DNA from: Georgenia sp. SYP-B2076
GTDB lineage: Bacteria; Actinomycetota; Actinomycetes; Actinomycetales; Actinomycetaceae
NCBI RefSeq assembly: GCF_003991205.1
Contig: NZ_RXOZ01000037.1
Location: forward strand, 177,379 to 209,378
Direction: 5' to 3'
DNA: 32,000 nt
Shown: positions 5,667 through 20,137 of the stretch, one piece after another
Layout of the letters: each line of letters opens with the position of its first letter
Position numbering within the stretch: position 1 is the first letter of the stretch
Notes under the pieces: generated by a model
What the model was told of the DNA's origin: nothing
The model's input: only the letters and a program-made list of their open reading frames with translations
Database searches by the model: none
Program-made: the position numbers and the translations under genes

Positions 5667-6500
5667 GTGAGCTCATCAGCGGGTGCCATGACGACGGGCA
5701 CGCCGACCGTCCTGCTCGTGCACGGGATCCGGGCGTCGTCGTCGATGTGGCGGCGTCAGGTCGACGCCCTCCGGGCGGCCGGCGTGCCCGCCGTCGCGCC
5801 GGACATGCCCGGGCACGGCAGCCGTGCCGGCGAACCGTTCACCGTCGACGGCGCGCTCGCGACCATCGAGGAGGTCGCCCGCCGTGTGGCGGCACCCGTG
5901 GTGGTCGCTGGCATGTCCATGGGCGGCTACCTCGCCCTGCACTGGGCCGCCCACACCCGGCGGCGGCCGGCCGCGGTGCTCGCGGCGTCGTGCAGCACCC
6001 AGCCGCAGGGGCTGCCGCTGTGGGCCTACCGGCGCCTCGCCCGCGCCATCGGCCGCCTCCCCGACGCCGGCGCCGGCCTGAGCGACGCGCTGGCGCGGCG
6101 CTTCCTGCCCGCGGACGCCCTCGCCGACGTGCTGGCCGGCGGGACGAACGTGGGCGTCATGGACCACGTCCTCGCGGGCATGGCCGGTGTTGACACGCTG
6201 GCGGACCTGCGCGCGATCGAGGCGCCCGTCTGGCTGGTCAACGGCCGCTGGGACCACTTCCGCGGCCACGAGCGCCGGTTCCTGCGTCAGTGTGCCGACG
6301 GGCGCCTCGTCGTCGTCCCGGGCGCCACCCACCTCGTCTCCCTCGTGCGGCCGGTCGCCTTCAACCGCGTCCTGCTGGACCTCGTCGAGGAGGTCCGCGC
6401 AGGCGGCGGTGGGCGGGACGGAGTCCGCACCGGCGGCGGCGGGCGGGACGGGGTCAGTGCCGGGGCGGGTGCGGGCCCGGCGGCAGCGCGTACGGCGTGA
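5667..6500 (+). CDS. Alpha/beta-fold hydrolase
   Basis: VLLVHGIRASSSMWRRQVDALRAAGVPAVAPDMPGHG, then the nucleophile-elbow-like GMSMGG, and a late H in PGATHLV. The start is ambiguous: GTG 5667 or ATG 5688. The C-terminus holds a 30-nt-period repeat (GGGGRDGVRT/GGGGRDGVSA, 6402-6455). It overlaps the convergent ABC ATPase gene by 47 nt. Confidence 0.75.
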   Translation: MSSSAGAMTTGTPTVLLVHGIRASSSMWRRQVDALRAAGVPAVAPDMPGHGSRAGEPFTVDGALATIEEVARRVAAPVVVAGMSMGGYLALHWAAHTRRRPAAVLAASCSTQPQGLPLWAYRRLARAIGRLPDAGAGLSDALARRFLPADALADVLAGGTNVGVMDHVLAGMAGVDTLADLRAIEAPVWLVNGRWDHFRGHERRFLRQCADGRLVVVPGATHLVSLVRPVAFNRVLLDLVEEVRAGGGGRDGVRTGGGGRDGVSAGAGAGPAAARTA

Positions 6501-7221
6501 CGACCGCACGCCGGCGGCCGCCCTCGCCGTACGTGATGGTCCGCACCTCCACGGCGTACAGCTCGGAGAGCGCGTCGTCGGTGAGCAGCGCGGCGGCGGC
6601 GCCGGTGCGCACGTCGCCCGCGCCCATCATCAGGACGGCGGAGTCGGCGAGGGACAGGGCGTGGTCGGGGTGGTGCGTGGTGAGCAGCACCGCCATGCCG
6701 TCCGCGACCAGCCGGCGCAGCAGCACCAGGATCCGGGCCTGGTTGTGCAGGTCCAGCCCGGTCGAGGGCTCGTCGAGCACGAGGGTCGGGCACTGGGAGG
6801 CCAGCGCGCGGGCGATCAGCACGAGCTGCTGCTCACCGCCGCTGAGCGTGGGGAACGCCCGGTCCCACAGGTGCGAGATCCCCACCCGGTCCATCGCGGC
6901 GAGCGCCGCGGCCCGGTCCGCGCGGCCGGGGGTCGAGAACATCCCGATGAGGCGCGTGCGTCCCATCACGACCATGTCGAGGGCGTCGTAGGCGAACGCG
7001 CCGCCCCGCGCCTGCGGGACGTACCCGACGGCGCCGTCGGTGGCGACGGTGCCCTCGCGCGGGGCCAGGAGCCCGGCGGCGCAGCGCACGAGCGTCGTCT
7101 TGCCCCGGCCGTTGGGCCCGAGCACGGCCGTGACGGATCCCGGTGCCACCCGGAAGCTCACCTCCCGGAAGAGCCAGCCTCCGCGCGGGTAGCGGAAGCC
7201 GAGGCGGTCGACCTCAAGCAC
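6454..7221 (-). CDS. ABC transporter ATP-binding protein (FecE/FhuC-like, iron-chelate/B12 class)
   Basis: Walker A GPNGRGKTT, signature LSGGEQQ and Walker B LVLDEPSTGLD are present. The GTG start overlaps the permease stop by 8 nt (GTGCTTGA). Confidence 0.9.
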   Translation of the reverse strand: MLEVDRLGFRYPRGGWLFREVSFRVAPGSVTAVLGPNGRGKTTLVRCAAGLLAPREGTVATDGAVGYVPQARGGAFAYDALDMVVMGRTRLIGMFSTPGRADRAAALAAMDRVGISHLWDRAFPTLSGGEQQLVLIARALASQCPTLVLDEPSTGLDLHNQARILVLLRRLVADGMAVLLTTHHPDHALSLADSAVLMMGAGDVRTGAAAALLTDDALSELYAVEVRTITYGEGGRRRAVVTPYALPPGPHPPRH

Positions 7222-8293
7222 TGTCCCAGATCCTGTCCCGGTTGCGGCGCAGCAGCACGAAGAAGGCCGGCGCCCCGACCAGCGCCGTGATGACCCCGAG
7301 CGGGATCTCCGCGGCCGTGGCCGTCCGCGCCAGGGTGTCGACGGCGATGAGATAGGCGCCGCCCGTGAGGAACGAGACCGGCAGCAGCACCCGGTGGTCC
7401 GGCCCCACCCACATCCGTGCCAGGTGCGGGACCACCAGCCCGACCCACGCCACGACGCCGCTGACCGCGACGCCCCCCGCGACGATGAGCGCGGCGGCGA
7501 CGAGCACGACCCACCTCATGCGGCCCGGCCGCAGCCCGAGCGCGGCGGCCTCCTCGTCCCCGAGGGACAGCACGTTGATGCGCCACCGCACGGCCACGAG
7601 GACCACCGTGCCCGCGAGGATCGGCACGACGGCGACCGCGAGCGTGGCGTAGGTGGCCGTGGCGACGCTGCCCAGCAGCCAGAACACGATCGCCGGCAGG
7701 GTCGTGTACGGGTCGGCGAGGTAGGTCAGCAGGGACACGAGGGCGGAGAAGAACGAGCCGGTCACCACCCCGCCGAGGACGACCATGAGCATCGAGGCGC
7801 CGCTGCGCCCGAGGGTGAGCAGGAACAGGAGGGTCAGGGCCCCGAGACCGAAGACGAACGCCCCTCCGACGAGGTACACGGTGCCCAGCCCGAGGAGCAG
7901 GGCGAGCGCCCCGCCGAACGACGCGCCCGCGGAGACCCCGATGATCTCCGGGCTGACGAGGGGGTTGCGGAAGGTCGCCTGCAGCGCGGCGCCGGCGATG
8001 CCCAGGCCGCCCCCGACGAGCAGGGCGAGCAGGATCCTCGGCAGGCGCACGAGCAGCACGATGTTCTGCTCGTTCCCGGCCGCGGGGCCGGCCGCCCCCA
8101 GCGCCCGGGCCGCCACGATCTGCGCGACGTCGGTCAGCGGGACCGGGAACCGGCCCACCGACAGCGCGACCAGGACCACCCCCACGAGGACCGCCGCCAT
8201 GACGAGGACCGGGAGGGCGGCCCGCCGCTGGTCGTCGTCCGATCGCCGGCGCCGCACCGCCCGGCCCGGCGCCCGGGCGTGGTCATCGGGCAT
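7214..8293 (-). CDS. FecCD-family ABC permease
   Basis: A multi-pass hydrophobic protein with the family-typical ...LQATFRNPLVSPEIIGVSAGASFGGALALLLG... and C-terminal GVITALVGAPAFFVLLRR. The ATG overlaps the binding-protein stop by 11 nt. Confidence 0.9.
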   Translation of the reverse strand: MPDDHARAPGRAVRRRRSDDDQRRAALPVLVMAAVLVGVVLVALSVGRFPVPLTDVAQIVAARALGAAGPAAGNEQNIVLLVRLPRILLALLVGGGLGIAGAALQATFRNPLVSPEIIGVSAGASFGGALALLLGLGTVYLVGGAFVFGLGALTLLFLLTLGRSGASMLMVVLGGVVTGSFFSALVSLLTYLADPYTTLPAIVFWLLGSVATATYATLAVAVVPILAGTVVLVAVRWRINVLSLGDEEAAALGLRPGRMRWVVLVAAALIVAGGVAVSGVVAWVGLVVPHLARMWVGPDHRVLLPVSFLTGGAYLIAVDTLARTATAAEIPLGVITALVGAPAFFVLLRRNRDRIWDSA

Positions 8294-9434
8294 CGAACTG
8301 TCCGTAGCCCGCCGAGCCGCCGTTGACCTCGGACCACAGGATCCGGCCCAGGTCCGCGTCCGTGGGCCGGTAGCCGTAGAGGAAGCCGTAGGCGTCGCGG
8401 ACGTCGTCCCGCAGGGGCCGGCCGTCGTCCCCGGGGAACACGATCCGGGAGAGCCAGCGCCACATCAGCGGGGACTCCTGGCCGGGCGGGTCCCACCGGT
8501 ACCCGCCCAGCGGCACCTTGTAGACGCGCCGCGACCGCACCGCGGACACGGGGCCCCACACCGCGTCGCCGTAGACGTCGTCGGGCATCGCCTCGTCGAA
8601 GTTGCCGAGCAGCACGATGTCGGGGTCCCAGCCGAGCACCTGCTCGACGTCCACCCCCACCATGCCCGGGCCCCGGACGCCGGTGGGCCCGGACGCCGGG
8701 TTCTCGGCGCCGACCAGCCGGATGTAGAAGTCGTTGTAGGTCCTCGGCCCGGCCACCTTGAGGCCGGCGGAGAAGCGGTTGAAATACAGGACCTTGGGCG
8801 CGGCGCCGGCCACCTTCGCGGTGCGCGCCTTCACCTCCCGCAGCGCGGCGTCGCTGCGGGAGATCATCTCCTTCGCGCGGTCCGGCTTGCCGAGGATGGT
8901 CGCGAACAGGGTCGTCCAGGTGTCGAGGTCGTCCTGGGTCCCGTAGGTGACGCCGAGCACCTTCAGCCCCGCGTTCTCCAGGGGGGCGATGATGCCCGTC
9001 CCCTCGTCGGCCCACTGCACGACCACGTCGGGCCGGAGCGCGAGGATGCTCTCCACGTTGGGGGTGAAGTCCTGCCCGGCCACGTCGTGGGCGATCCCGG
9101 TGGCCCTGGGGAACATCGTGGCCATGATCCCGTCGCGGATCGCCGTAAAGGACGCCTCGTTCATGCCCACCAGGTGGTCGGCGGAGGCGTCGACCGCGAT
9201 CGCGAGGGAGGCGGCCGGCATCGGCAGCGTGACGATCCTGGTGACGGGGCGGTCGAAGGTCAGCGTGGTGCCCCGCTGGTCCTGGACCGTGATCCCGCCG
9301 GCCGCGGTGGTCGCGGCGGGCTCCGCCCGCGACCCGCACGCCGAGAGGAGGCCGAGGCCCCCGAGCAGCGCGGCGCCCCTGAGGACCGAGCGCCGCGAGA
9401 TCGCCGGCAGCTCGCCGAAGGCCGGGGGACTCAT
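8283..9434 (-). CDS. ABC substrate-binding lipoprotein (periplasmic-binding-protein type 2, siderophore/B12 class) with a twin-arginine-like signal
   Basis: The start was chosen at MSPPAFGELPAISRRSVLRGAALLGGLGLLSACGS, which combines RR, an h-region and an LSAC lipobox. The body resembles FhuD/BtuF-type binders. The ATG at 9432-9434 overlaps the upstream gene's TGA (ATGA). Confidence 0.85.
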   Translation of the reverse strand: MSPPAFGELPAISRRSVLRGAALLGGLGLLSACGSRAEPAATTAAGGITVQDQRGTTLTFDRPVTRIVTLPMPAASLAIAVDASADHLVGMNEASFTAIRDGIMATMFPRATGIAHDVAGQDFTPNVESILALRPDVVVQWADEGTGIIAPLENAGLKVLGVTYGTQDDLDTWTTLFATILGKPDRAKEMISRSDAALREVKARTAKVAGAAPKVLYFNRFSAGLKVAGPRTYNDFYIRLVGAENPASGPTGVRGPGMVGVDVEQVLGWDPDIVLLGNFDEAMPDDVYGDAVWGPVSAVRSRRVYKVPLGGYRWDPPGQESPLMWRWLSRIVFPGDDGRPLRDDVRDAYGFLYGYRPTDADLGRILWSEVNGGSAGYGQFDAR

Positions 9435-10213
9435 GCGAGCATCCCGGCCGGCCCGGCCTCCGCGGCGGCGTTGACGATGTCCAGGTGGCGCCTCGTGTAG
9501 TGGCGCAGCGCCCGGACCTGCCGCTCGGTCACCCGGTCGCAGACCCACTCCCAGTGCATGGCCACCCAGTCACCCGCCCGCAGCGGGGAGCTGAGCCCGA
9601 GGCCGCCGATCGCGCGCTCGACCGTCTCGAGCTCGGGCTCGCCGAAGCCGAGCCGGCGCCCGTCCCAGGTGAGGTGCCGGGACTCCACGGCGACCCGGTC
9701 GCCGTGGAGGTGGACGACCCTGCCCCAGCGGATCCGGCACATGTCGAGCACGGTCAGGGCCTGCCCGGCCCGCCGGTCGTCGCCCAGCAGGCCCGTCCAC
9801 GGGTAGATGCAGAACACCGCGAAGCTGTGGTGCGGGACGCCCCCGGCGAGCACCCCGGCGGTGAGGTTGCCGAAGCGCGGGCCGGACCGGAACCGGAAGC
9901 GGTCCTCCATCGAGCTGCCGATCTTCGTCACGCCGACACGGTCCAGCCGGGGACTTCCGATCCAGTAGGCCTCGACGGCGCGCGGGTCGAGCGGGTCGGA
10001 GAGCCCCGTGGCCCCGGCGATGAGCTCGAGGTAGGGCCAGGCCCCGGCGAACTCGCGCGCCATGGCGCGCAGACCGCGGTCGTCGCCCCCGGTGCCGCTC
10101 TCGAAGAACGCCAGGTGGTCCGCCGGGCCGCAGTACCCGTGGTGGTTGGGCGGGAACGCGTACCGGGCGAACAGCACGGGGCCCGGCACGGCAGCGGACG
10201 GGGCCGTGGGCAT
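9431..10213 (-). CDS. Conserved hydrogenase-cluster protein of unknown function (I recall the name DUF6390; unverified)
   Basis: The 260-aa ORF starts MPTAPSAAVPGPVLFARYAFPPNHHGYCGPADHLAFFE... It lies 8 nt after the hypC stop and is stop/start coupled to the ABC binding protein. I recognise no catalytic motif. Confidence 0.7.
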   Translation of the reverse strand: MPTAPSAAVPGPVLFARYAFPPNHHGYCGPADHLAFFESGTGGDDRGLRAMAREFAGAWPYLELIAGATGLSDPLDPRAVEAYWIGSPRLDRVGVTKIGSSMEDRFRFRSGPRFGNLTAGVLAGGVPHHSFAVFCIYPWTGLLGDDRRAGQALTVLDMCRIRWGRVVHLHGDRVAVESRHLTWDGRRLGFGEPELETVERAIGGLGLSSPLRAGDWVAMHWEWVCDRVTERQVRALRHYTRRHLDIVNAAAEAGPAGMLA

Positions 10214-10221
10214 GTCGCCCC

Positions 10222-10470
10222 TCACCCGTCCGCGTCCCGACCGCCGCCCATGAGCTCGAGCCCCTCCATGGCGCGGGCCGCTCGGCCGGGGTCGATGACC
10301 TCCATGGCGAAGCCCATGTGGATGAGCACCCAGTCGCCGGGGCGGGGCGAGGGGCCGTCGAGCATGCCGAGGTTGATGGTGTCCCGCACGCCGCGCACGT
10401 CGGCGAGCGCGAGCATGCCGCCGTGGCCCTCCACGGCCTCGACGATCCTGCCCGGGATGCCTAGGCACAT
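10222..10470 (-). CDS. hypC: Hydrogenase assembly chaperone HypC/HybG/HupF
   Basis: MCLGIPGRIVEAVEGHGGMLALADVRGVRDTINLGMLD...GDWVLIHMGFAMEVI shows the canonical N-terminal MCLGIPG with the essential Cys2. The product is 82 aa. Confidence 0.93.
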   Translation of the reverse strand: MCLGIPGRIVEAVEGHGGMLALADVRGVRDTINLGMLDGPSPRPGDWVLIHMGFAMEVIDPGRAARAMEGLELMGGGRDADG

Positions 10471-10519
10471 CGCTGTCTCCGTCCTTCGGGTCGCTGAGCC
10501 TGCCGCCCTCGGTGGTCGG

Positions 10520-10627
10520 TCACATCCGCAGGAGCCGGTACTCGCGCTTGAGCGCGGGCAGCTCCTTGCGGGCCAGGTACACGAAGCCGACAGCGCCCGC
10601 CGCCGCCAGCGCCGCCTTGACCGGCAT
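10520..10627 (-). CDS. Tiny single-pass membrane protein (I recall 'DUF6893 family small protein' from hydrogenase loci; unverified)
   Basis: The 35-aa product is MPVKAALAAAGAVGFVYLARKELPALKREYRLLRM, with AGGAG 7 nt upstream of the ATG. An in-frame upstream GTG at 10729 also has a GGAGG 8 nt upstream and would give 69 aa, so the start is unresolved. Confidence 0.5.
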   Translation of the reverse strand: MPVKAALAAAGAVGFVYLARKELPALKREYRLLRM

Positions 10628-10764
10628 CGTCACGCTCCTGCCGGCCGTCCGCGCCGCCCGCCCGGGCGGCATCACCCCGCCCGCGGCCGACGTCCTGATC
10701 CGCCCGACCAACGTCCGCACGTCCTTCACCGTCCCCGCCTCCTGTCCGTGAGTGGGCCCGCCGC

Positions 10765-10968
10765 TCAGCCCGGCGGCAGGTTGGGCATTGCCGTGGAGAC
10801 GGGGTCGTGCTTGCGCGGGTTGATCCCCGTGGAGCGGCGCGCGTCGACGGTGTCGTCGGCGTGGTGGCCGCGCTGCTCCTCCACGGGGCCGCTGTTGCCC
10901 TGGTCCACCCCCTTGACGTGCGCCGACGCGTCGGGAGCGACGTCGCGCCTGCCTACCCGGATGCTCAT
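10765..10968 (-). CDS. Small hydrophilic hypothetical protein (67 aa)
   Basis: MSIRVGRRDVAPDASAHVKGVDQGNSGPVEEQRGHHADDTVDARRSTGINPRKHDPVSTAMPNLPPG. A strong AGGGAGGG lies 3 nt upstream of the ATG, 11 nt after the preceding gene's stop. It has no Cys and is probably disordered. Confidence 0.55.
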   Translation of the reverse strand: MSIRVGRRDVAPDASAHVKGVDQGNSGPVEEQRGHHADDTVDARRSTGINPRKHDPVSTAMPNLPPG

Positions 10969-10979
10969 GGACCCTCCCT

Positions 10980-11564
10980 TCAACGGTGCTCGGTGAGCTC
11001 GGCGAAGAACTGGTCGATGGCGGGCCACACCCGGCTCCCGCCGGACAGGCCGCGCCACTCACGCCGCACGACGGCGACCAGCCGGAAGCAGTCGTCGACC
11101 GGGACCAGCCAGTGGTGCCGGCTCCCGCGGGCGGTGTTGACCAGGAAGGCCTCCACCTCCGGGGTCAGCCCGGCCAGCTCGGGGCGGCGGCCCACCACGG
11201 TCCGCCACGCCAGCGGGTCGACCTCCCACTGGGTGGAGCCGAGGGGGCTCGGGTAGTGGGCGACCACCGCGCCGCCCGCCCCGCGGACGAAGTACGCCAG
11301 GCCCACCGGGACACCGAGCTCCTCGGTCGAGACCTCGCCCAGGCGCACGCGGCGCTCCGGCACGAGGCGGTAGTGGCCGAGGCTGGCGACGTCCCGGACG
11401 AAGAGCAGCGAGCACGGCTGGCAGGCGCACATCACGTCGCCCCGCTCGGTGTCGAGCAGGTGGCGGTGCCGCTCGCGCAGCGGGGCGCTGCACACGTCGC
11501 ACCGCTCGGCGAGCAGCGGCGCCGCCCCGCCGCGGACCACCCGCTCCAGCGCCCCGCTGCTCAC
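10980..11564 (-). CDS. Conserved hydrogenase-cluster protein with a 4-Cys (zinc-ribbon-like) N-terminus (I recall DUF5947; unverified)
   Basis: The 194-aa product contains CDVCSAPLRERHRHLLDTERGDVMCACQPC, read as CxxC-X20-CxCxxC. Its GTG start overlaps the NifU-like gene's stop (GTGA). Confidence 0.7.
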   Translation of the reverse strand: MSSGALERVVRGGAAPLLAERCDVCSAPLRERHRHLLDTERGDVMCACQPCSLLFVRDVASLGHYRLVPERRVRLGEVSTEELGVPVGLAYFVRGAGGAVVAHYPSPLGSTQWEVDPLAWRTVVGRRPELAGLTPEVEAFLVNTARGSRHHWLVPVDDCFRLVAVVRREWRGLSGGSRVWPAIDQFFAELTEHR

Positions 11565-12118
11565 GCCGATCCCCGCAGGGCCGCGGGGCGCTGGAACAGC
11601 GCCTCCACCGGGATCACCGTCGGCCCGCCCCTCGGCGGCTGGACCGGCTCCACCTCGGTCAGCTCCGGGGCCAGCGCGAGCACGGCGTCCGACACCGTCT
11701 GCTCGAGGGTGACGGCCGACGACGAGCAGCTCCCGCAGGCGCCGGAGAGCTGGACGTGGGCGACCCCGGCGTCGATGTCGACGAGCTCGACCCGCCCGCC
11801 GTGGGACTCGATGTAGGGCCGCACCGCGTCGAGCGCCTGCTCCACCCGGTCCTGGACGGGGTCGGGATGGATGTCGTGGACGACCATGAGGTGAGCCACC
11901 AGCTGGTCCCGGGCGAGGTCGGCGCGCAGCGGCTCGGGCGCCACCGCCAGGACGCGTCGCAGGCCTTCCCCGTAGATCTCCGCCAGCGTCCGGATGGCCT
12001 CGACCGCCGCCTCGGAGGTCGCGCCGGGTACCTGCTCGACCACGTCCAGCAGCTCGTCGAACCGGTCGAGCAGCTGCCCGACCGCCGCGTCGTCCAGGCG
12101 CGGGGCCGACTCACCCAT
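11561..12118 (-). CDS. NifU-like Fe-S protein (HhyE-like candidate redox partner or Fe-S scaffold)
   Basis: The C-terminal half RPYIESHGGRVELVDIDAGVAHVQLSGACGSCSSSAVTLEQTV matches the NifU C-terminal (Nfu) fold with CxxC. The ATG overlaps the hhyL stop by 8 nt. Confidence 0.75.
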   Translation of the reverse strand: MGESAPRLDDAAVGQLLDRFDELLDVVEQVPGATSEAAVEAIRTLAEIYGEGLRRVLAVAPEPLRADLARDQLVAHLMVVHDIHPDPVQDRVEQALDAVRPYIESHGGRVELVDIDAGVAHVQLSGACGSCSSSAVTLEQTVSDAVLALAPELTEVEPVQPPRGGPTVIPVEALFQRPAALRGSA

Positions 12119-13910
12119 GGGATGCCCCGAACATCGGCGAGTGCGTCTGCGAGATGGTGCGGCCCCCGCCGACGTACATGTGCACCCCGCACGGCAGGCA
12201 CGGGTCGAAGCTGCGGACGGCGCGCATGATGTCCACGCCGCGGAACTCATCCGGCCCGTTCTCCTCGAAGATCGGCATGTCCTGGACGGCGTCCTCGTAC
12301 GGCCCCGGGGTGCCGTAGCTGTCCCGCGGGCTGCCGTTCCACGGCGTCGGTGGGTAGGGGTGGTAGTTGGCGATCTTGCCCTCGCGGATGACGAGGTGGT
12401 GGGAGAGCACGCCGCGGACGGCCTCGTGGAACCCGCAGCCGATGGCCTCCTCCGGCACGTCGAACGTCTGGAACACCTTCTGGTCACCCCTGCGCACCCG
12501 CGTCAGCGCCTCCTCGAGGAAGTACAGGGCCATGCCGGCGGCGTAGGCGATGAAGTAGACCCGGGCCCGGTCCCGCTCGATCGCGTTCGACCACGGCGGG
12601 ATCCGCCACTCCAGCGTCGACTCCGGCAGCGAGGCGCTGCGCGGCAGGGAGATCTGCACGCCCGAGCCGGTCGAGCGCACGTACGGCGTCTGCACCTTGC
12701 CGGCGAGCGCCGTCGCGTAGAGCCGCGCGAACGGGCCGCCACCGGTGTCCAGCGCGAGGTGGTCCCCCGTGCGCCGGTCGAACCAGCGGGGGCTCATCAC
12801 CCAGCTGTACCGGCCGTCGAAGTCACGCTTGCCGGGGGCGGGCAGCGTCGTCTGGTTCCACGGGTGGCGCATGTCCACCGGGTTGCCGAGCGGGTCATGG
12901 GTGACGAACGGCGGCTCGGCGACCCAGTCCTCGTAGTAGGAGCTACCCAGCAGGATCCGGATGCCGAGGTTGATGTCGACGAGGTTGGAGGTGACGAGCT
13001 CGCCGTCGACGATGACGCCCGGGGTGACGAACATCGCGTTGCCCCACTCGTTCATCGTCTCGTACCGGTAGTCCACGACCTCGGGGTCCTGGAACGCCCC
13101 CCAGCAGCCCAGCAGGACGCGTCGCCGACCGACCTCCTCGTAGCCGGGGAGCGCCGCGTAGAAGAAGTCGAACACGTCGTCGTTCATGGCGACGGCCTGC
13201 TTGACGAAGTCGATGATCGACATCAGCCGGGAGAGGTAGTCGGTGAACAGCGTGGGGGTGGGCATCGTCCCCACCCCGCCGGGGTACAACGTCGAGGGGT
13301 GGACGTGGCGGCCCTCCATGAGGCAGAACATCTCCCGGGTGACCCGGCTCATGTGCAGCGCCTGCTTGTAGACCTCGCCCTCGAAGGGGTTGAAGGCGCG
13401 CATGATGTCGGCGATGGTCCGGTAGCCATGCATGCCGGCGTTCGGTGCCGGCGTGTTCTCCGCCCTGGCCAGGACGCTGGGGTTGGTCGCCTTGACCATG
13501 GCCTCGCAGAAGTCGACGAAGACGAGGTTGTCCTGGAAGAGGGTGTGGTCGAAGAGGTACTCCGCGGCCTCGCCGAGGTTGACGATCCACTCGGCCAGCT
13601 TGGGCGTCTTGATCCCGTAAGCCATCTGCTGGGCGTAGTTGGAGCACACGGTGTGGTTGTCGCCGCAGATGCCGCAGATCCGGCTGGTGATGAAGCCGGC
13701 GTCGCGCGGGTCCTTGCCCTTCATGAAGACCGAGTAGCCGCGGAACAGCGAGGAGGTGCTGTGGCACTCGGCGACCCGCTGGTTCTGGAAGTCGATCTTT
13801 GTGTAGATGCCGAGGTTGCCGATGATCCGGGTGATCGGGTCCCAGGACATCTCGACAAGCTGTTCCTGCTCCTGGCCCGGTCCGGCGCCCTTGCGGTCGG
13901 TGACGGTCAT
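12111..13910 (-). CDS. hhyL: [NiFe]-hydrogenase large subunit, group 1h (formerly group 5, high-affinity)
   Basis: The 599-aa product has N-terminal FITSRICGICGDNH and C-terminal SFDPCLPCGVH followed by a 22-aa cleavable tail. These are the published L1/L2 signatures of group 5/1h as I recall them. The ATG overlaps the hhyS stop (ATGA). Confidence 0.93.
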   Translation of the reverse strand: MTVTDRKGAGPGQEQEQLVEMSWDPITRIIGNLGIYTKIDFQNQRVAECHSTSSLFRGYSVFMKGKDPRDAGFITSRICGICGDNHTVCSNYAQQMAYGIKTPKLAEWIVNLGEAAEYLFDHTLFQDNLVFVDFCEAMVKATNPSVLARAENTPAPNAGMHGYRTIADIMRAFNPFEGEVYKQALHMSRVTREMFCLMEGRHVHPSTLYPGGVGTMPTPTLFTDYLSRLMSIIDFVKQAVAMNDDVFDFFYAALPGYEEVGRRRVLLGCWGAFQDPEVVDYRYETMNEWGNAMFVTPGVIVDGELVTSNLVDINLGIRILLGSSYYEDWVAEPPFVTHDPLGNPVDMRHPWNQTTLPAPGKRDFDGRYSWVMSPRWFDRRTGDHLALDTGGGPFARLYATALAGKVQTPYVRSTGSGVQISLPRSASLPESTLEWRIPPWSNAIERDRARVYFIAYAAGMALYFLEEALTRVRRGDQKVFQTFDVPEEAIGCGFHEAVRGVLSHHLVIREGKIANYHPYPPTPWNGSPRDSYGTPGPYEDAVQDMPIFEENGPDEFRGVDIMRAVRSFDPCLPCGVHMYVGGGRTISQTHSPMFGASHG

Positions 13911-15019
13911 CGGGGGCCTCCTGCGGTGGTGGGGACGTCGGGGCGCCAGCGCGGGTCGTAGCCGCTGGTGAGCTCGCCGCGGTTGTGCCGCCACCGCGGT
14001 TCCTTGTTCAGGGCGGTGTTGGTGATCTCGCGCATCTTGCGGACGAAGACGCCGTAGGGCTTGCCGAGCGCGGCGGAGAGGTAGCCGCCCGGCGGGACGT
14101 CCATGAACGGCATGAACTTGTCCGGGAAGCCGGGCATCGTGCAGCCGATGCAGATGCCGCCGACGTTGGGGCACCCGCCGATGCCGTGCATCCAGCCCCG
14201 CTTGGGCACGTTGCAGTTGACGACAGGTCCCCAGCACCCGACCTTGACCTGGCACTTGGGGGAGTTGTAGTCGTGGGCGAAGTCGGACTGCTCGTAGTAC
14301 CCGGCCCGGTCGCACCCCTCGTGCACCGTCTTGCCGAAGAGCCACTGCGGGCGCAGCAGGTTGTCCAAGGGGGGCGGCGGCGCCGCCCCGGCCGCGTGGT
14401 AGAGGATCCAGGCCAGGGTCTCCATGAAGTTCTCCGGCTGCACCGGGCAGCCGGGGACGTTGACGATCGGCAGGTCCCCAGCCGAGCGGAAGTCCCAGCC
14501 CAGGTAGTCCGCCAGCCCCATGGACCCGGTGGGGTTCCCCGCCATGGCATGGATGCCGCCGTACGCTGCGCACGTGCCGATGGCGACCACGGCCCACGCC
14601 TTGGGGGCGAGCCGGTCGATCCACCAGTTGAGGGTGAGTGGCTCGCCCGTGGCGAGGTCGTTGCCGAAGGACGTCCAGTAGCCCTCGCCGTTGATGTTCT
14701 CGTTCGGGATGGACCCCTCGATGACGAGGATGAACGGCGCCAGCTCGCCGCGGGCCGCAGCGCGGAAGGGCGCGAGGAACTCCTCGCCGCCCAGGGTGGG
14801 GGAGAGGACCTTGTTGTGCAGGTTGACCTTCGGCAGGCCGGGGATGAGCCCGGTCACGACGTCCTCGATCGACGGCTGGCTGGAGGCCGTGATGGAGACG
14901 GTGTCGCCGTCGCAGCTCATGCCCTCCGAGATCCAGAGGATGTCGATCTCGGGGAAGCCGGCGCGGTCCTCATAGGCGGCGCGCCGGTCACCCGCCGGGG
15001 TCGTGGCGGTCGTGGTCAT
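13907..15019 (-). CDS. hhyS: [NiFe]-hydrogenase small subunit, group 1h, no Tat signal
   Basis: The 370-aa product shows Cys patterns GMSCDGD, GTCAAYGG, GCPVQP, HEGCDR, KCQVKVGCWGPVVNCNV and GGCPNVGGICIGCTMPGFPD. The N-terminus MTTTATTPAGDRRAAYED lacks a hydrophobic h-region. AGGAGA lies upstream. Confidence 0.93.
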   Translation of the reverse strand: MTTTATTPAGDRRAAYEDRAGFPEIDILWISEGMSCDGDTVSITASSQPSIEDVVTGLIPGLPKVNLHNKVLSPTLGGEEFLAPFRAAARGELAPFILVIEGSIPNENINGEGYWTSFGNDLATGEPLTLNWWIDRLAPKAWAVVAIGTCAAYGGIHAMAGNPTGSMGLADYLGWDFRSAGDLPIVNVPGCPVQPENFMETLAWILYHAAGAAPPPPLDNLLRPQWLFGKTVHEGCDRAGYYEQSDFAHDYNSPKCQVKVGCWGPVVNCNVPKRGWMHGIGGCPNVGGICIGCTMPGFPDKFMPFMDVPPGGYLSAALGKPYGVFVRKMREITNTALNKEPRWRHNRGELTSGYDPRWRPDVPTTAGGPR

Positions 15020-15621
15020 CTCTGTCTCCTTCGTGGGCCTGGGCGCCGGTCGCCGTGGGCGGCCTCCGGCCGCGCGGCGGTGGTCTCGTGCGAGGGGCCG
15101 GGTGGCCCGGTGGCATCGCCGCGACGCTGCGGGCGGGCCGCGGCCCGCACGGCCGCGCCGGCCGCCTCGGTCCTGGCGAGCTCGACGACGAGGGGGACGG
15201 CCTCCTCGACGGCGGCCCGCACCGGCTCGGACAGCCCCAGGACCTCCTCGAGGACCTGCGGCTGGCACCCGACCACCAGCACCCGATCGATCGTCCCGCC
15301 GAGCCCGCGCAGGGCGCCCAGGACCACGTCGGGGCTCATCGCGTGGGCGTCGACGGTGCCCGGGGCGTCACCGGCCCGCCGGCTGGCGTCGAGGACGGCG
15401 ACGGTGCCCGGCGCCCGGCCGAGCGGGACCGCGTCGACGAGCACGAGCGTGGAGTACCGGCCCTCGAGGAGCTCGAAGGCGAGGTGGATGCCGCGGATGC
15501 CGTAGTCGGCGACGTCGACACCGTCCGGGACGGCGGCGCCCTGCAGCCGCCGCACCACCTCGACCCCGAACCCGTCGTCGCCGAGGAAGACGTTGCCGAT
15601 CCCCGCCACCAGCACGCTCAT
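15016..15621 (-). CDS. Hydrogenase maturation endopeptidase (HybD/HupD family) with a roughly 50-aa basic/Pro-rich C-terminal tail
   Basis: MSVLVAGIGNVFLGDDGFGVEVVRRL..., DYGIRGIHLAFELLEGRYSTLVLVDA and VDAHAMSP give the metal-ligand D/D/H pattern of the family. There are ATGA overlaps at both ends, with the 486-aa ORF and with hhyS. Confidence 0.85.
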   Translation of the reverse strand: MSVLVAGIGNVFLGDDGFGVEVVRRLQGAAVPDGVDVADYGIRGIHLAFELLEGRYSTLVLVDAVPLGRAPGTVAVLDASRRAGDAPGTVDAHAMSPDVVLGALRGLGGTIDRVLVVGCQPQVLEEVLGLSEPVRAAVEEAVPLVVELARTEAAGAAVRAAARPQRRGDATGPPGPSHETTAARPEAAHGDRRPGPRRRQR

Positions 15622-17078
15622 GCCGTGCCTCCGGAGCCTCCGGCGCCCCCGGTGTCTCCCGCGGCGACCGTGCCGGTGCCGACTGCGGGCGGCCCGTCGC
15701 CGTCGAGGGGTTCGACCTCGTCGGGGGCGAAGTAGTGGAACCGCCCGTACCACCTGTGCGGCTCGCTGGAGGGGTCTTCCAGGGTGACGGCGACGTGCCG
15801 GGCGTCGTCGACGTCGCGGAAGATCCCCTCGACCCGCGCCGTGCGGCCGGCGAGGAACATGTCGTGCGCGTCCGAGCCGCGGGCGCGCGGCCGCAGCCGC
15901 ACCCTGCTGCCCCGGGCGACGCGGACCCCGCCGACCGTGACCGTCTCGGACCCCGGGGAGACGGCGGGTTCCCACCGCGGCGGGGCGGCCGCGGCACCGT
16001 CCGGCGGGGCCGCGTGGGGCCGGAGCGACCGGATCGCGCCGTGCAGCCGCGCCATCACCTCCGGTGGCATCGCCTCGGCGCGGTCGACGATCGCGGCCGT
16101 CCGCGGGTCGGTCGCGCGGGCCTCGCGCTTCTCCCCGTCGGTGAGCGTCAGGGTGCGCAGCGAGAGGATCTCGTCGATCTCGGCGGCGTCGAACAGGTCC
16201 CCGGGGCTCTCCGGGGCGACCCGGGGGTGGTCGTACAGGATGATCGGCGAGGACAGGACGAGGTCGCGGCTGCCGGGCTCGCCGACCAGGACCGGGAACG
16301 TGCGGATGTTGGCGCACTGCCCTGCCGCCGCCTCCGCCCACGCCGGAGGCTCGAGCAGCGACAGGAACGACCCGGCGTCAAGGGCCAGCAGGGTGTGCGT
16401 CGCGATGAGGCTCGAGCGCAGCGCCACCGGCCGGGCCGCCGCCGGCGGCGGGCCGGCCGCCGCGTTCTCGGTGCGCACGCGCAGGCGGTGGAGCGGGAAC
16501 GGGGTGGGCATCCGCTCGAGGGAGAGCTGCGCGCGCGCCGTGAGGGGGCGGCGCCGGCGCACGACCCGGCCGACCGCCCGGCCCTCGCCGTCCGCCACGG
16601 GCTCGACGTCCTCGCCGCCGGGGGCCGCGACGTCGAGCGTGCGCGGCCGGGCGCGCAGCCCACCCAGGGGCACGGCGACGTCGGCCTCCCGCGGGACGGC
16701 CTCCTCGAAGCTCAGCTCGGTGCGGCCGCCCACCTCGAGGCGCTCGACCCGGTGGAACGACCCGTCCGGCCGGCGCTCCTCGATGTCGCGGGTCTGCAGC
16801 TGGAGGTAGCGCACGCGGACGCGGAGGGTCGCGGCGTCCGGCGCCTCGAGCAGGCACTCGGTCTGCTGCCACCACGACTCGCTGGAGCCCGCGACGCCGT
16901 CCACGGCGCCGCCGCGGGCGTCCACCCAGGCGCGCGGCGCGAGGATCCCGAACTGCCAGCGGACCTGGTTCTTCCCGGACGACTTGCGGTACGGGTAGAG
17001 GACGTAGCCCTCGTAGAGGACGGCGTCGGCGACGGTCAGGGCGCGCGCGAACGGGTCGTGGGGAACCGGATCGACCAC
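15618..17078 (-). CDS. 486-aa conserved hypothetical protein embedded in the hydrogenase operon
   Basis: The GTG start is preceded by GGGAGGGAGG with 6-nt spacing. The N-terminus reads LYEGYVLYPYRKSSGKNQVRWQFGILAPRAW. It has only 2 Cys, no TM segment, and a Gly-rich tail. The stop overlaps the protease ATG. Confidence 0.75.
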   Translation of the reverse strand: MVDPVPHDPFARALTVADAVLYEGYVLYPYRKSSGKNQVRWQFGILAPRAWVDARGGAVDGVAGSSESWWQQTECLLEAPDAATLRVRVRYLQLQTRDIEERRPDGSFHRVERLEVGGRTELSFEEAVPREADVAVPLGGLRARPRTLDVAAPGGEDVEPVADGEGRAVGRVVRRRRPLTARAQLSLERMPTPFPLHRLRVRTENAAAGPPPAAARPVALRSSLIATHTLLALDAGSFLSLLEPPAWAEAAAGQCANIRTFPVLVGEPGSRDLVLSSPIILYDHPRVAPESPGDLFDAAEIDEILSLRTLTLTDGEKREARATDPRTAAIVDRAEAMPPEVMARLHGAIRSLRPHAAPPDGAAAAPPRWEPAVSPGSETVTVGGVRVARGSRVRLRPRARGSDAHDMFLAGRTARVEGIFRDVDDARHVAVTLEDPSSEPHRWYGRFHYFAPDEVEPLDGDGPPAVGTGTVAAGDTGGAGGSGGTA

Positions 17079-17132
17079 CTCGCACCTCCCTCCCGCTTCT
17101 GCGGCGTCGTCGCCCGGCGCGGGGACGTCCGC

Positions 17133-17993
17133 CTAGGGCTCCGCCGCCACCGCCTCCCGGGCCGGCGCACGGGCGGCGAGCCAGCCGAGCCAGCCGCCGA
17201 ACCCCTCGCCGGTGGTCGCCGAGACGACCCGGGCGTCCGCCCGGGGGTTGAGCCGGCGGGCCTGCTCGACGCACCGCTCGACGTCGAAGTCGACGTAGGG
17301 GAGCAGGTCGGCCTTGTTGATGAGCACGAGGTCGGCCGCGGCGAACATGTGCGGGTACTTCAGCGGCTTGTCGTTGCCCTCGGTGACCGAGATGATCACG
17401 ACCCGGGCGGCCTCGCCGAGGTCGAAGAGCGCCGGGCACACGAGGTTGCCCACGTTCTCGATGAAGAGGTACGAACCCGGCCGCGGCGCGAGGCGGTCCA
17501 GCCCCCGGCGGAGCATGTCGGCGTCGAGGTGGCAGCCGGCCCCGGTGTTGATCTGGACGACGGGGGCGCCGGTCGCGCGGATCCGGTCGGCGTCGAGGAG
17601 CGTCTCCTGGTCCCCCTCGACGACGGCGACGCCGCGGTCGCCGGCCAGCTCCCGGATCGTCCGCTCGAGCAGGGTCGTCTTGCCCGCGCCCGGCGAGCTC
17701 ATCACGTTGACGGCGAAAATCTCCCGGCCCTCCAGCCAGCCCCGGTTGCGGGCGGCCAACAGGTCGTTCTTGGCGAGGAGGTTCTGCTCGAGGACGAGGG
17801 TCTCCGGACGCGCGACCTCGCCGCGCCCGTGGTCGTGGGGGTGGTCGTGCGCGTGGTCGTGGGGGTGGTCGTGCTCGTGGTCGTGCGTGTGGCCGTGAGG
17901 GTGGTCGTGCGCGTGCTCATGCTCGCGCTCCTGGTCGTCGGCGGTCGACACGCGGACCCCGGCCGCGTCGCTGCAGCCACACGTCGAGCACAT
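17133..17993 (-). CDS. hypB: Hydrogenase nickel-incorporation GTPase HypB
   Basis: It has the N-terminal MCSTCGC (CxxCGC Ni site), a His-rich stretch, the P-loop SSPGAGKTT, ENVGNLVCPA and NKADL. Confidence 0.95.
   Translation of the reverse strand: MCSTCGCSDAAGVRVSTADDQEREHEHAHDHPHGHTHDHEHDHPHDHAHDHPHDHGRGEVARPETLVLEQNLLAKNDLLAARNRGWLEGREIFAVNVMSSPGAGKTTLLERTIRELAGDRGVAVVEGDQETLLDADRIRATGAPVVQINTGAGCHLDADMLRRGLDRLAPRPGSYLFIENVGNLVCPALFDLGEAARVVIISVTEGNDKPLKYPHMFAAADLVLINKADLLPYVDFDVERCVEQARRLNPRADARVVSATTGEGFGGWLGWLAARAPAREAVAAEP
17829..17921 (-). repeat. His-rich (HD/HP/HE dipeptide) coding repeat in hypB
   Basis: It encodes HEHAHDHPHGHTHDHEHDHPHDHAHDHPHDH. The DNA shows reiterated gtggtcgtg(g/c) units. 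Confidence 0.85.
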
Positions 17994-17994
17994 C

Positions 17995-18324
17995 TCACAC
18001 CACCCTCACCGAGGTGACCGCGAGCTCCCGGCCGCTGCGGATCGCGACGTCGGCGCTGCCGCACGGGCACAGCAGGATCGGGTCGGAGATCTCGAAGTCG
18101 CGACCGCAGCTGCGGCACGTGGCCGCCCCGGCCGGCTCCTCGATGTTGAGCTGGGCGCCGGCGAGCGTCGTGCCCTCTGCCACCACGTCGAAGCAGAACC
18201 GCACGGCCTCAGGGACGACTCCCGAGAGCCGCCCGATCGTCAGGTTCACGGCAGTGACCTTCCGGCCGCCGGTGCGGTCCAGCACCGCGTCGACGACGCT
18301 CTGGGTGAGAGACAGCTCATGCAT
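17995..18324 (-). CDS. hypA: Hydrogenase nickel metallochaperone HypA
   Basis: It has the N-terminal MHELS (MHE Ni-binding motif) and the Zn site CRSCG...CPCG. The product is 109 aa. The stop lies 1 nt from the hypB ATG. Confidence 0.92.
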   Translation of the reverse strand: MHELSLTQSVVDAVLDRTGGRKVTAVNLTIGRLSGVVPEAVRFCFDVVAEGTTLAGAQLNIEEPAGAATCRSCGRDFEISDPILLCPCGSADVAIRSGRELAVTSVRVV

Positions 18325-18441
18325 CCACACAGCCTCGGGAAACAAGGTAATCCGCCCACCGCCCCCGGCACAACGGGTCCGACCGGGGCAATGCGCCCGG
18401 CGCGGGCGGGTGGCCGGGCGGCCGGGGAGCGGCCGGGCCGC

Positions 18442-19203
18442 TCAGCGCACCCGCAGGTCCCACGCGCGTACGCCGCCGATGATCCCGGCGCTGTTGGGCA
18501 CGATGACGACGTCGTCGCCGAGGCGCGCGAGCACCTGCGGGCTGATCCGGCGTGAGTTCCCGCCGCCGAGGTAGAGGCGGTCCCACATGTACATCGGGCG
18601 CAGGGCCTCCACGACCTTGCGCACGCGCCGCGACCACTGCGCGTCGCCCAGCCGGAGCCGCTCGTGCTCCCCGATGTAGTCGTCGTAGGTCAGCCCCCAG
18701 CGGACCGGGCCCTGGCTCAGCTCGACGTGCGGGGCCAGGGCGCCGCCGTCGAAGACCGCGTTGCCGAGGCCGGTGCCGAGGGTCACGATCATCTCCAGGC
18801 CCGCGCCGGCCACCACGCCGGCGCCGTGGACCTCGGCGTCGTTGAGGACCAGAGCCGGCAGGGCGAGGGCCTCCTCGACGGCGCCGCGCATGTCGAACCC
18901 GGACCAGTGGAGCACCAGCTCGGGCAGCACCCGGGTGCGGGGGCCGGACCGGGTGACGTAGTGCGGCGTCGCGACGACGACGCCGTGGCGCAGCATCCCC
19001 GGCATGCCCACCGTCACCCGCTGCGCCCGGGGCAGCTGCTCGGCCAGGGACGCGATCGTCGCGACGAGGCGTGCGGGCGGCAGCGGGTACGGCGTGGCGG
19101 TGCGCACGGGCTGGGCGTGCATGGTGCCCGCGGAGTCGAGGACCGAGGCCTTGATGCCGCCGCCGCCACAGTCCACGGCCAGCGTCGCGAGAGGGGATTC
19201 CAC
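18442..19203 (-). CDS. ROK-family sugar kinase, polyphosphate/ATP glucokinase-like
   Basis: LAVDCGGGGIKASVLD is an N-terminal phosphate-1 motif, and LNDAEVHGAGV and GTGLGNAVF are also present. At 253 aa the size is typical of actinobacterial PpgK. It has a GTG start. Confidence 0.75.
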   Translation of the reverse strand: MESPLATLAVDCGGGGIKASVLDSAGTMHAQPVRTATPYPLPPARLVATIASLAEQLPRAQRVTVGMPGMLRHGVVVATPHYVTRSGPRTRVLPELVLHWSGFDMRGAVEEALALPALVLNDAEVHGAGVVAGAGLEMIVTLGTGLGNAVFDGGALAPHVELSQGPVRWGLTYDDYIGEHERLRLGDAQWSRRVRKVVEALRPMYMWDRLYLGGGNSRRISPQVLARLGDDVVIVPNSAGIIGGVRAWDLRVR

Positions 19204-19228
19204 CCCGCGACGGTACTAGCCTCGCTGC

Positions 19229-20137
19229 GTGAGCAACGGCGAGGACCCCCAGCGCGCGGACGCCGTGCGGATCCGGCTCGACGTCGCCTACGACGGCGGG
19301 GCGTTCGCCGGGTGGGCGACGCAGCCGGGCCTCCGCACGGTGCAGGGCGTGCTGGAGGAGGCGCTGACCACCGTGCTGCGGCTGCCCGCGCCGGCCCGGC
19401 TGACCGTGGCGGGCCGCACGGACGCCGGCGTCCACGCGCGCGGGCAGGTGGCGCACCTGGACGTCCCCCGCGGCGCCTGGCTGGCCCTTCCCGGTCGCGG
19501 CGACCGGGCGCCCGGGCAGGCGCTCGTCGCCCGGCTGGCCGGGGTGCTCGGCCGGGGGCAGCGCCCGCGGGGGGCGAGCGACGTCGTCGTGCGCGGGGCG
19601 GGCGAGGCGCCGGCCGGCTTCGACGCGCGCTTCAGCGCCGTGTGGCGCCGCTACGCGTACCGGGTCGCCGACGACGCCCGGTTCCGCGACCCGATCCGGC
19701 GCACCGACGTGCTGTGGCACCCCCGCCCGCTGGACGTGACCGCCATGGACCACGCGGCGGCCGGGCTCCTCGGCGAGCACGACTTCGCGGCCTACTGCAA
19801 GCCCCGTGAGGGGGCCACGACGATCCGCACCCTCCAGGACTTCCGCTGGCGTCGGGTGCCGGCCGGCGCGCCGGACGCCGGCCTCGTGGTCGCCACCGTG
19901 CGCGCCGACGCCTTCTGCCACTCCATGGTCCGCGCGCTCGTCGGCGCGAGCGTGGCCGTGGGGGAGGGGCGCCGGGACGCGCCGTGGCCCGCGCAGGTGC
20001 TGGCCGGGCGCGAGCGGCAGCCGGGCGTCGCCGTGGTCGCCGGGCACGGCCTCACCCTCGAGGAGGTGGCCTACCCGGGCGACCACGAGCTCGCCGCGCG
20101 GGCCGCGGAGGCCAGGAACGTGCGCACGCTGCCCTGA
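19229..20137 (+). CDS. truA: tRNA pseudouridine(38-40) synthase
   Basis: [27 protein letters not shown]..., [17 protein letters not shown] (catalytic Asp) and [11 protein letters not shown] are present. It has a GTG start. Confidence 0.93.

Follow-up and report, generated by a model that had tools for sequence, protein, structure and literature searches.

The window analyzed here, a 32,000-nucleotide stretch of the genome of Georgenia sp. SYP-B2076, encodes a group 1h (Hhy) [NiFe]-hydrogenase, and its hydrogenase operon includes a 486-codon gene that lies between hypB and the gene for the maturation endopeptidase. The gene is genuine and tightly associated with the hydrogenase. Its product is an ordinary member of a recorded but uncharacterized family, to which we refer by the name of its Cupriavidus necator representative, PHG069; this tag is assigned by gene position and not from a tag in the sequence record. 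On balance, the protein is probably a maturation factor specific to Hhy; together with the endopeptidase it would act on the precursor of the hydrogenase large subunit, HhyL, and it would not be kept in the mature enzyme. The evidence that carries this reading is the conserved coupling of the two genes and their recurrent fusion into a single polypeptide.

Coupling and fusion to the maturation protease

The endopeptidase gene lies immediately downstream of the PHG069-family gene in most loci. The two genes overlap by exactly 4 nucleotides (nt; ATGA or GTGA) in 42 of the 44 scored pairs, including the pair on C. necator plasmid pHG1; the 44 pairs leave out a few further adjacent pairs that were mis-scored in stop finding. 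Co-production with the protease, proposed in a preliminary description of this DNA, is supported.

The two proteins also occur as one polypeptide. Among the 150 best representatives of the clusters formed at 50% identity, seven combine the PHG069-family protein with a HycI-type protease domain, and these seven share a mutual identity of 40-50%. Their junctions range from no linker at all (…EEIEPLARSVLVAGIGN…) to one of about 40 residues. For four of the seven, several contigs or assemblies contain the full-length fusion, and one of these four occurs in an Acidimicrobiaceae metagenome-assembled genome (MAG) at NCBI (MDQ1361239.1). One fusion gene belongs to a complete Hhy cluster; the contig, of 52.7 kb, has no separate protease gene. 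In the predicted structure of a fusion protein, the protease domain superposes on Escherichia coli HybD (1cfz, TMt 0.76). Such repeated coupling or fusion to a protease makes it likelier that the protein helps in assembly than that it belongs to the finished enzyme.

In the fusion-bearing cluster L086 (L086:9935-10565), a 34-residue DUF6893 open reading frame (ORF) and a YceI-family gene stand between the fusion gene and hypA.

Conservation in Hhy clusters

A scan of one genome per species yielded at least 597 confirmed loci of the family, and the best 80, together with two plasmid loci, were mapped with Hhy-cluster proteins. In all mapped loci (82) with enough flanking sequence, the gene is on the same strand as hhyS-hhyL-NifU-DUF5947. 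The mapped loci span Actinomycetota, Burkholderiales, other proteobacterial MAGs, and Thermoanaerobaculia. Layout A, in the order hhyS-hhyL-NifU-DUF5947-DUF6084-PHG069-protease, is carried by C. necator pHG1, a plasmid of Mycobacterium intracellulare, many Streptomyces, Streptosporangiales, proteobacterial MAGs, and one Thermoanaerobaculia MAG. In layout B, seen in Georgenia, Micromonospora, Actinomadura, and other Streptomyces, the PHG069-family gene is found upstream of hhyS, with or without the protease gene, and the clusters generally gave no DUF6084 match. In the Streptomyces loci L012-L020 and similar ones, the gap between the gene and hhyS measures 32-660 nt, and hypE, hypD, hypC, and hypF are on the opposite strand.

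Co-occurrence with HhyL, which the preliminary description had proposed to check, is complete in the plasmid collection, where HhyL (at least 70% identity) and the PHG069-family protein occur in an identical set of 13 records. A lack of conservation beside hhySL in other genomes had been named there as a ground for abandoning the link to the hydrogenase; the gene adjoins hhySL in every informative locus, and the neighborhood is therefore conserved.

Family identity and comparison with known proteins

No Pfam or NCBIfam family matches the Georgenia protein at E ≤ 1, and none matches its C. necator homologue; across the 52 members of the joint alignment, these libraries returned scattered chance matches only. 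Curated models of hydrogenase maturation proteins (HypA-F, HupF/HoxL, HyaE/HoxO, HyaF/HupH/HoxQ, HoxV, and others) did not match the protein, and neither did any PDB chain at E ≤ 10 in searches with phmmer and with a 52-sequence profile. A confident match to an unrelated enzyme family, which would have spoken for a different function, appeared in none of the family, PDB, and fold searches. The family comprises at least 7987 clusters at 90% identity (E 1e-3) and, at 50% identity, 3824 clusters with E ≤ 1e-3 and 1087 with E ≤ 1e-30. Sequence identity stands at about 60% across Actinomycetota and falls to about 40% against Burkholderiales, and the joint alignment has 54 invariant columns. A conserved, hydrogenase-linked protein without known function, as the gene product had been characterized at the outset, is what these searches describe.

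The homologue in C. necator H16, WP_011153991.1 (H16_RS31865, on pHG1), has 476 residues, a length similar to that of the Georgenia protein. In tblastn searches, residues 15-353 of the Georgenia protein matched the plasmid with E 7e-39, and residues 6-471 of the C. necator protein matched the window with E 6.7e-66, both at 38-39% identity; used as queries, the two proteins recovered the same large family. WP_011153991.1 is encoded in a group 1h cluster between a DUF6084 gene and the protease gene, and it overlaps the latter by 4 nt, as in Georgenia. The order in C. necator is hofK-hofG-NifU-DUF5947-DUF6084-PHG069-protease, whereas in Georgenia the pair formed with the protease gene lies upstream of hhyS, behind hypA-hypB, and a DUF6084 gene is not detectable. 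In the published account of the C. necator AH cluster, which includes hyp genes and hupD, hofKG corresponds to PHG064 and PHG065, PHG070 is the protease, and PHG069 is among four ORFs without known function (PMC4377017). Because PHG069 is already listed there, the Georgenia protein, whose C. necator orthologue is PHG069 by position, is not the undescribed hydrogenase component that it was first taken for. MSMEG_2722 had been considered as the M. smegmatis orthologue and was dropped, MSMEG_2722 and MSMEG_2721 being hypA and hypB.

The O2-tolerant group 1d hydrogenases have accessory proteins (HoxL/O/Q/R/T/V in Ralstonia eutropha; HyaE and HyaF in E. coli) that are encoded by enzyme-specific maturation genes beside the structural and protease genes, are required besides HypA-F, and do not form part of the mature enzyme. 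The gene of the PHG069-family protein likewise neighbors the structural and protease genes, but the protein has no Pfam or NCBIfam similarity to these factors, and its predicted fold is without a solved relative. We know of no group 1d accessory factor that occurs as a fusion to the endopeptidase. A rubredoxin-type accessory example is mentioned in PMC6883350. The HybD/HycI/HupD endopeptidases (PF01750) are both the neighbors and the fusion partners of the family, and the fusions carry a canonical HybD-like domain; unlike these enzymes, the PHG069-family protein itself has no protease-like domain. To our knowledge, no characterized HybD/HycI/HupD endopeptidase has been found to need a partner protein.

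Sequence features and predicted structure

The Georgenia protein contains two cysteines (residues 75 and 255). It has neither a P-loop nor a CxxC, its conserved regions show no nucleotide- or flavin-binding motif, its sole GxGxxG lies in the non-conserved tail, and its top 19-residue Kyte-Doolittle mean of 1.54 means that a transmembrane (TM) helix is not expected. These values agree with the two cysteines and the lack of a TM helix and of a nucleotide-binding motif noted in the preliminary description. That description also singled out both ends of the protein as striking. The N-terminus deserves the attention, since residues 21-50 are the most conserved part of the family, with LYPYR..KN..RW.FG invariant; the Gly-rich tail does not, with a column conservation of 0.05-0.11.

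The AlphaFold2 (AF2) model of the protein, built with 52 sequences, has a predicted local distance difference test score (pLDDT) of 80 and a predicted TM score (pTM) of 0.69. It consists of an N-terminal helix, a beta core (residues ~65-280), acidic helices (298-345), a disordered linker, a barrel (380-457), and a disordered tail. The two best-conserved blocks, residues 21-50 and 271-350, include loops modeled with low confidence (31-37 and 288-293). Loops that are conserved yet modeled with low confidence are typical of partner-binding or active-site loops, and these two may be of that kind. C255, H228, and H346 are invariant, C75 is nearly so, and an acidic block (E290, D297, E300, D302, and E303) is invariant as well.

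No relative spanning the whole model and no solved structural relative of the all-beta core emerged when PDB and BFVD were searched with Foldseek. The C-terminal barrel matched PetP (7r0w_V, TMt 0.74; 2n5u, TMt 0.65) and, more weakly, the nitrile hydratase beta subunit. Matches to secretins and viral glycoproteins were rejected as long-strand artefacts (TM ~0.1). The top match, the DISARM helicase DrmA (7s9v_A), had E values of 4.8e-5 and 1.9e-4 but TMq values of 0.26 and 0.21, a TMt of 0.11, a root-mean-square deviation of 23-24 Å, and 10% identity, and a helicase-like P-loop is missing from the protein. The DrmA match recurs with the model of an independent homologue, yet with TM values of at most 0.26 we treat it as uninformative.

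A probable role in large-subunit maturation

In the mechanism that we favor, the protein, orthologous to C. necator PHG069, would be soluble, carry no cofactor, and serve group 1h (Hhy) [NiFe]-hydrogenases specifically as an accessory protein. It would pair physically with the HycI/HybD-type endopeptidase in the final maturation step of the large subunit. Following nickel insertion by HypA and HypB, the endopeptidase would take off the 22-residue C-terminal extension of HhyL. The PHG069-family protein would bind the HhyL precursor, placing or gating the protease, and would then depart, so that it would be no part of mature HhySL. The physical complex with the protease, the exact step of action, and the binding partner are what we infer here. 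In the window, a hypA-hypB-PHG069-protease block stands just before hhySL, an order that fits the late maturation steps, and HhyL has a 22-residue extension after CGVH that is presumably the protease substrate. The sole solved group 1h enzyme, 5AA5 from C. necator, has no homologue of the protein among its chains. The Hhy activity band of M. smegmatis is of low molecular weight, and HhyS and HhyL alone are given for it among 'selected' proteins. An assembly factor was one of several options in the preliminary description; the evidence favors this option and sharpens it to a partner of the maturation protease. A stronger version, in which the group 1h endopeptidase is a two-component machine with the ~50-kDa PHG069-family protein as its obligate substrate-recognition or gating subunit, is possible but doubtful.

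Several observations weigh against a maturation partner of the protease. Nearly all genes of the operon overlap, so the ATGA at the PHG069/protease junction is not specific by itself. In ~24 loci with the Streptomyces layout, the PHG069-family gene is directly upstream of hhyS and the protease gene is elsewhere, which means that adjacency to the protease is not obligatory. There are also other, rarer fusions: DUF5947 is joined to the N-terminus of the protein in P0310 (four contigs) and P0380 (three contigs), and a hemerythrin domain to its C-terminus in P0071 (L084:430-2484, on a single 3-kb metagenome contig), so a larger accessory complex, and not the protease alone, may be what the protein is linked to. 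The model of a natural fusion has a pTM of 0.56 and leaves the conserved APESPG loop disordered, and hence it carries no structural information on the interface. As to the finished enzyme, the proteomics listing covers 'selected' proteins only, and crystallization may lose a loosely bound subunit. Literature searches on PHG069 and the neighboring cluster genes returned no functional data.

The protein could instead be a stoichiometric, noncatalytic subunit of mature Hhy that acts as a scaffold, an oligomerization factor, or a tether for membrane or quinone docking, a role for which the preliminary description had invoked the mycobacterial Huc complex. We regard this as unlikely. The closest evolutionary partner of the protein is the protease, which is not retained in the mature enzyme, and no PDB chain is homologous to the protein, the purified and crystallized 5AA5 included (these are deposited structures, not a pull-down); the low molecular weight of the Hhy activity band, with HhyS and HhyL alone listed, points the same way. 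A subunit would accord with the co-transcription and translational coupling with hhyS and hhyL in the window, with the universal linkage to hhySL, and with the membrane association of M. smegmatis Hhy, which has no known anchor and whose electron acceptor is open in the literature, but the protein lacks a TM or amphipathic anchor as well as a cofactor motif. The HucM-type extra subunit of Huc (group 2a) is, like the PHG069-family protein, encoded in the cluster and devoid of cofactors. Structures of Huc were reportedly published in 2023; sequence and profile searches of PDB, in a copy presumed to hold Huc, gave no match to it, and no Huc entry is among the 50 fold matches listed. The Huc-like structural, tethering, or quinone-docking subunit is left unsupported by these results.

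A maturation factor of another kind, one that holds or delivers nickel or iron or shields the nascent active site from O2, is improbable as well. Its appeal lies in C255, H228, H346, C75, and the acidic block, which suit metal binding, and in the location of the gene behind hypA-hypB in the window; however, the conserved ligand residues are few, and a His-rich or CxxC site is lacking. A hemerythrin domain is joined to one member of the family, on the single small contig mentioned above, and the C-terminal domain resembles a domain of the nitrile hydratase beta subunit, but its SH3-like fold is generic. Such a factor would also leave the repeated protease fusions unexplained. Least probable by far is that the protein serves as the physiological electron acceptor or an electron relay of Hhy. 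It has two cysteines in all, one of them invariant, and none of the Fe-S, heme, flavin, or nucleotide-binding motifs by which an electron-transfer protein would be recognized; the candidates in the literature are the neighboring NifU-like (HhyE) and DUF5947 (PHG067) proteins, and what speaks for a relay is genomic position, with the group 1h acceptor open in the literature.

Gene and operon organization in the window

The features of the window are collected in Table 1. The G+C content of the PHG069-family gene at codon positions 1, 2, and 3 is 0.79, 0.56, and 0.97, and in a genome of 74% G+C (the value for the whole window) the third-position figure is a coding signature; the bias on the minus-strand frame had been judged correctly by eye. 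The annotated hypothetical protein of Georgenia sp. SYP-B2076 is the same protein (100% identity, 486 residues, same start). The GTG start with its Shine-Dalgarno sequence (GGGAGGGAGG, 6 nt upstream) and the overlap of the stop with the protease ATG (ATGA, 15621-15618) were likewise read correctly in the preliminary description. Its claim that the gene is locked against hypB fails, as a gap of 54 nt follows the hypB stop at 17133. A scan of window positions 9000-19500 for promoters and terminators gave nothing beyond chance.

Table 1. Features of the hydrogenase gene cluster in the window, in minus-strand reading order
Feature	Position	Strand	Basis or remark
hypA, nickel metallochaperone	17995..18345	minus	Pfam PF01155
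hypB, nickel GTPase	17133..17993	minus	Pfam PF02492, tblastn; 54 nt upstream of the PHG069-family gene
Shine-Dalgarno sequence GGGAGGGAGG	17085..17094	minus	6-nt spacer before the GTG of the PHG069-family gene
GTG start of the PHG069-family gene	17078-17076	minus	Sequence reading
PHG069-family coding sequence	15618..17078	minus	486 residues; PHG069-family protein of group 1h hydrogenase clusters
N-terminal motif LYEGYxLYPYRxSSxKNxxRWxFG	16929..17018	minus	Residues 21-50; alignments A1 and A2 (A2, the joint alignment), conservation profile
Large all-beta core	16239..16886	minus	Residues 65-280, mostly pLDDT >90; holds C75, H228, C255
Second conserved block APESPGDLxDxxEIDEILxLR and acidic helices	16038..16238	minus	Residues 281-347; closes with invariant LHG
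Variable Pro/Ala-rich linker	15945..16037	minus	Residues 348-378; predicted disordered
Small SH3-like beta-barrel domain	15705..15944	minus	Residues 379-458; closes with conserved DEVEPL; AF2 model
Gly-rich tail, non-conserved	15621..15704	minus	Residues 459-486; variable protease linker in fusion proteins
ATGA stop/start overlap, PHG069-family gene/protease	15618..15621	minus	TGA 15620-15618, protease ATG 15621-15619
HycI/HybD-type maturation endopeptidase, 201 residues	15016..15621	minus	Pfam PF01750, E 1.3e-15
hhyS, [NiFe]-hydrogenase small subunit, 370 residues	13907..15019	minus	Pfam PF01058 and PF14720
hhyL, group 1h large subunit, 599 residues	12111..13910	minus	Motifs TSRICGICGDNH and SFDPCLPCGVH
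NifU-like protein (HhyE/PHG066-like), 185 residues	11561..12118	minus	Pfam PF01106
DUF5947 protein (PHG067-like)	10980..11564	minus	Pfam PF19372, E 8e-67
hypC	10222-10470	minus	Gene listing of the window
DUF6390 protein	within 9431-10468, likely start near 10189-10225	minus	Pfam, E 2.2e-89
ABC importer	6454-9548	minus	Periplasmic binding protein PF01497, FecCD permease, ATPase

The genes follow one another on the minus strand in the order hypA, hypB, PHG069-family gene, protease, hhyS, hhyL, NifU-like, DUF5947, hypC, DUF6390, and ABC importer. From the PHG069-family gene to the DUF5947 gene, six genes are linked by overlaps of stop and start, three of them ATGA, one GTGA, and one of 8 nt. After the PHG069/protease overlap, these are the junctions protease/hhyS (ATGA, 15016-15019), hhyS/hhyL (ATGA, 13907-13910), hhyL/NifU-like (8 nt, 12111-12118), and NifU-like/DUF5947 (GTGA, 11561-11564). 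The PHG069-family gene is placed three genes upstream of hhyL within the same translationally coupled operon. By tblastn, the hhyS product is 68% identical to its C. necator counterpart and HhyL is 72% identical to HofG, the one group 1h large subunit with a solved structure (5AA5). Both the L1 and the L2 motif of group 1h are present in HhyL, and they are the group 1h/5 motifs quoted in PMC5364354.

A gap of ~510 nt between the DUF5947 gene and hypC (10471-10979, minus strand) is the place that DUF6084 takes in layout-A clusters; a tblastn search for DUF6084 over the whole window gave no match. A 180-residue ORF at 10520..11062 was considered as a divergent DUF6084 and dropped: its third-position G+C content of 0.66-0.75 is non-coding, it has no family match, and it shows no similarity to the C. 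necator DUF6084 protein. A 97-residue ORF (10765-11058, minus strand) overlaps the end of the DUF5947 gene and runs into the same gap, and an internal ATG would yield a product of ~67 residues. The DUF6390 protein, encoded directly behind hypC, represents a further uncharacterized family in the Hhy cluster. The ABC importer that adjoins the hydrogenase cluster may bring in a metal or a siderophore for maturation.

Significance

In soils, group 1h hydrogenases account for a large share of the atmospheric H2 that bacteria take up, and their assembly in air, as well as the roles of four or five conserved neighbor genes, is still to be explained. Among these neighbors, the PHG069 family, with its 3824 clusters at 50% identity, has no curated model, solved structure, or assigned function. 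The ORFs themselves are already known to hydrogenase specialists; the recurrent fusion to the protease is a fresh, concrete, and testable lead. A two-component endopeptidase, if true, would account for the dependence of Hhy-type enzymes on a dedicated accessory set for maturation in air, and the lead to a partner of the protease may aid the heterologous production of O2-insensitive, high-affinity hydrogenases.

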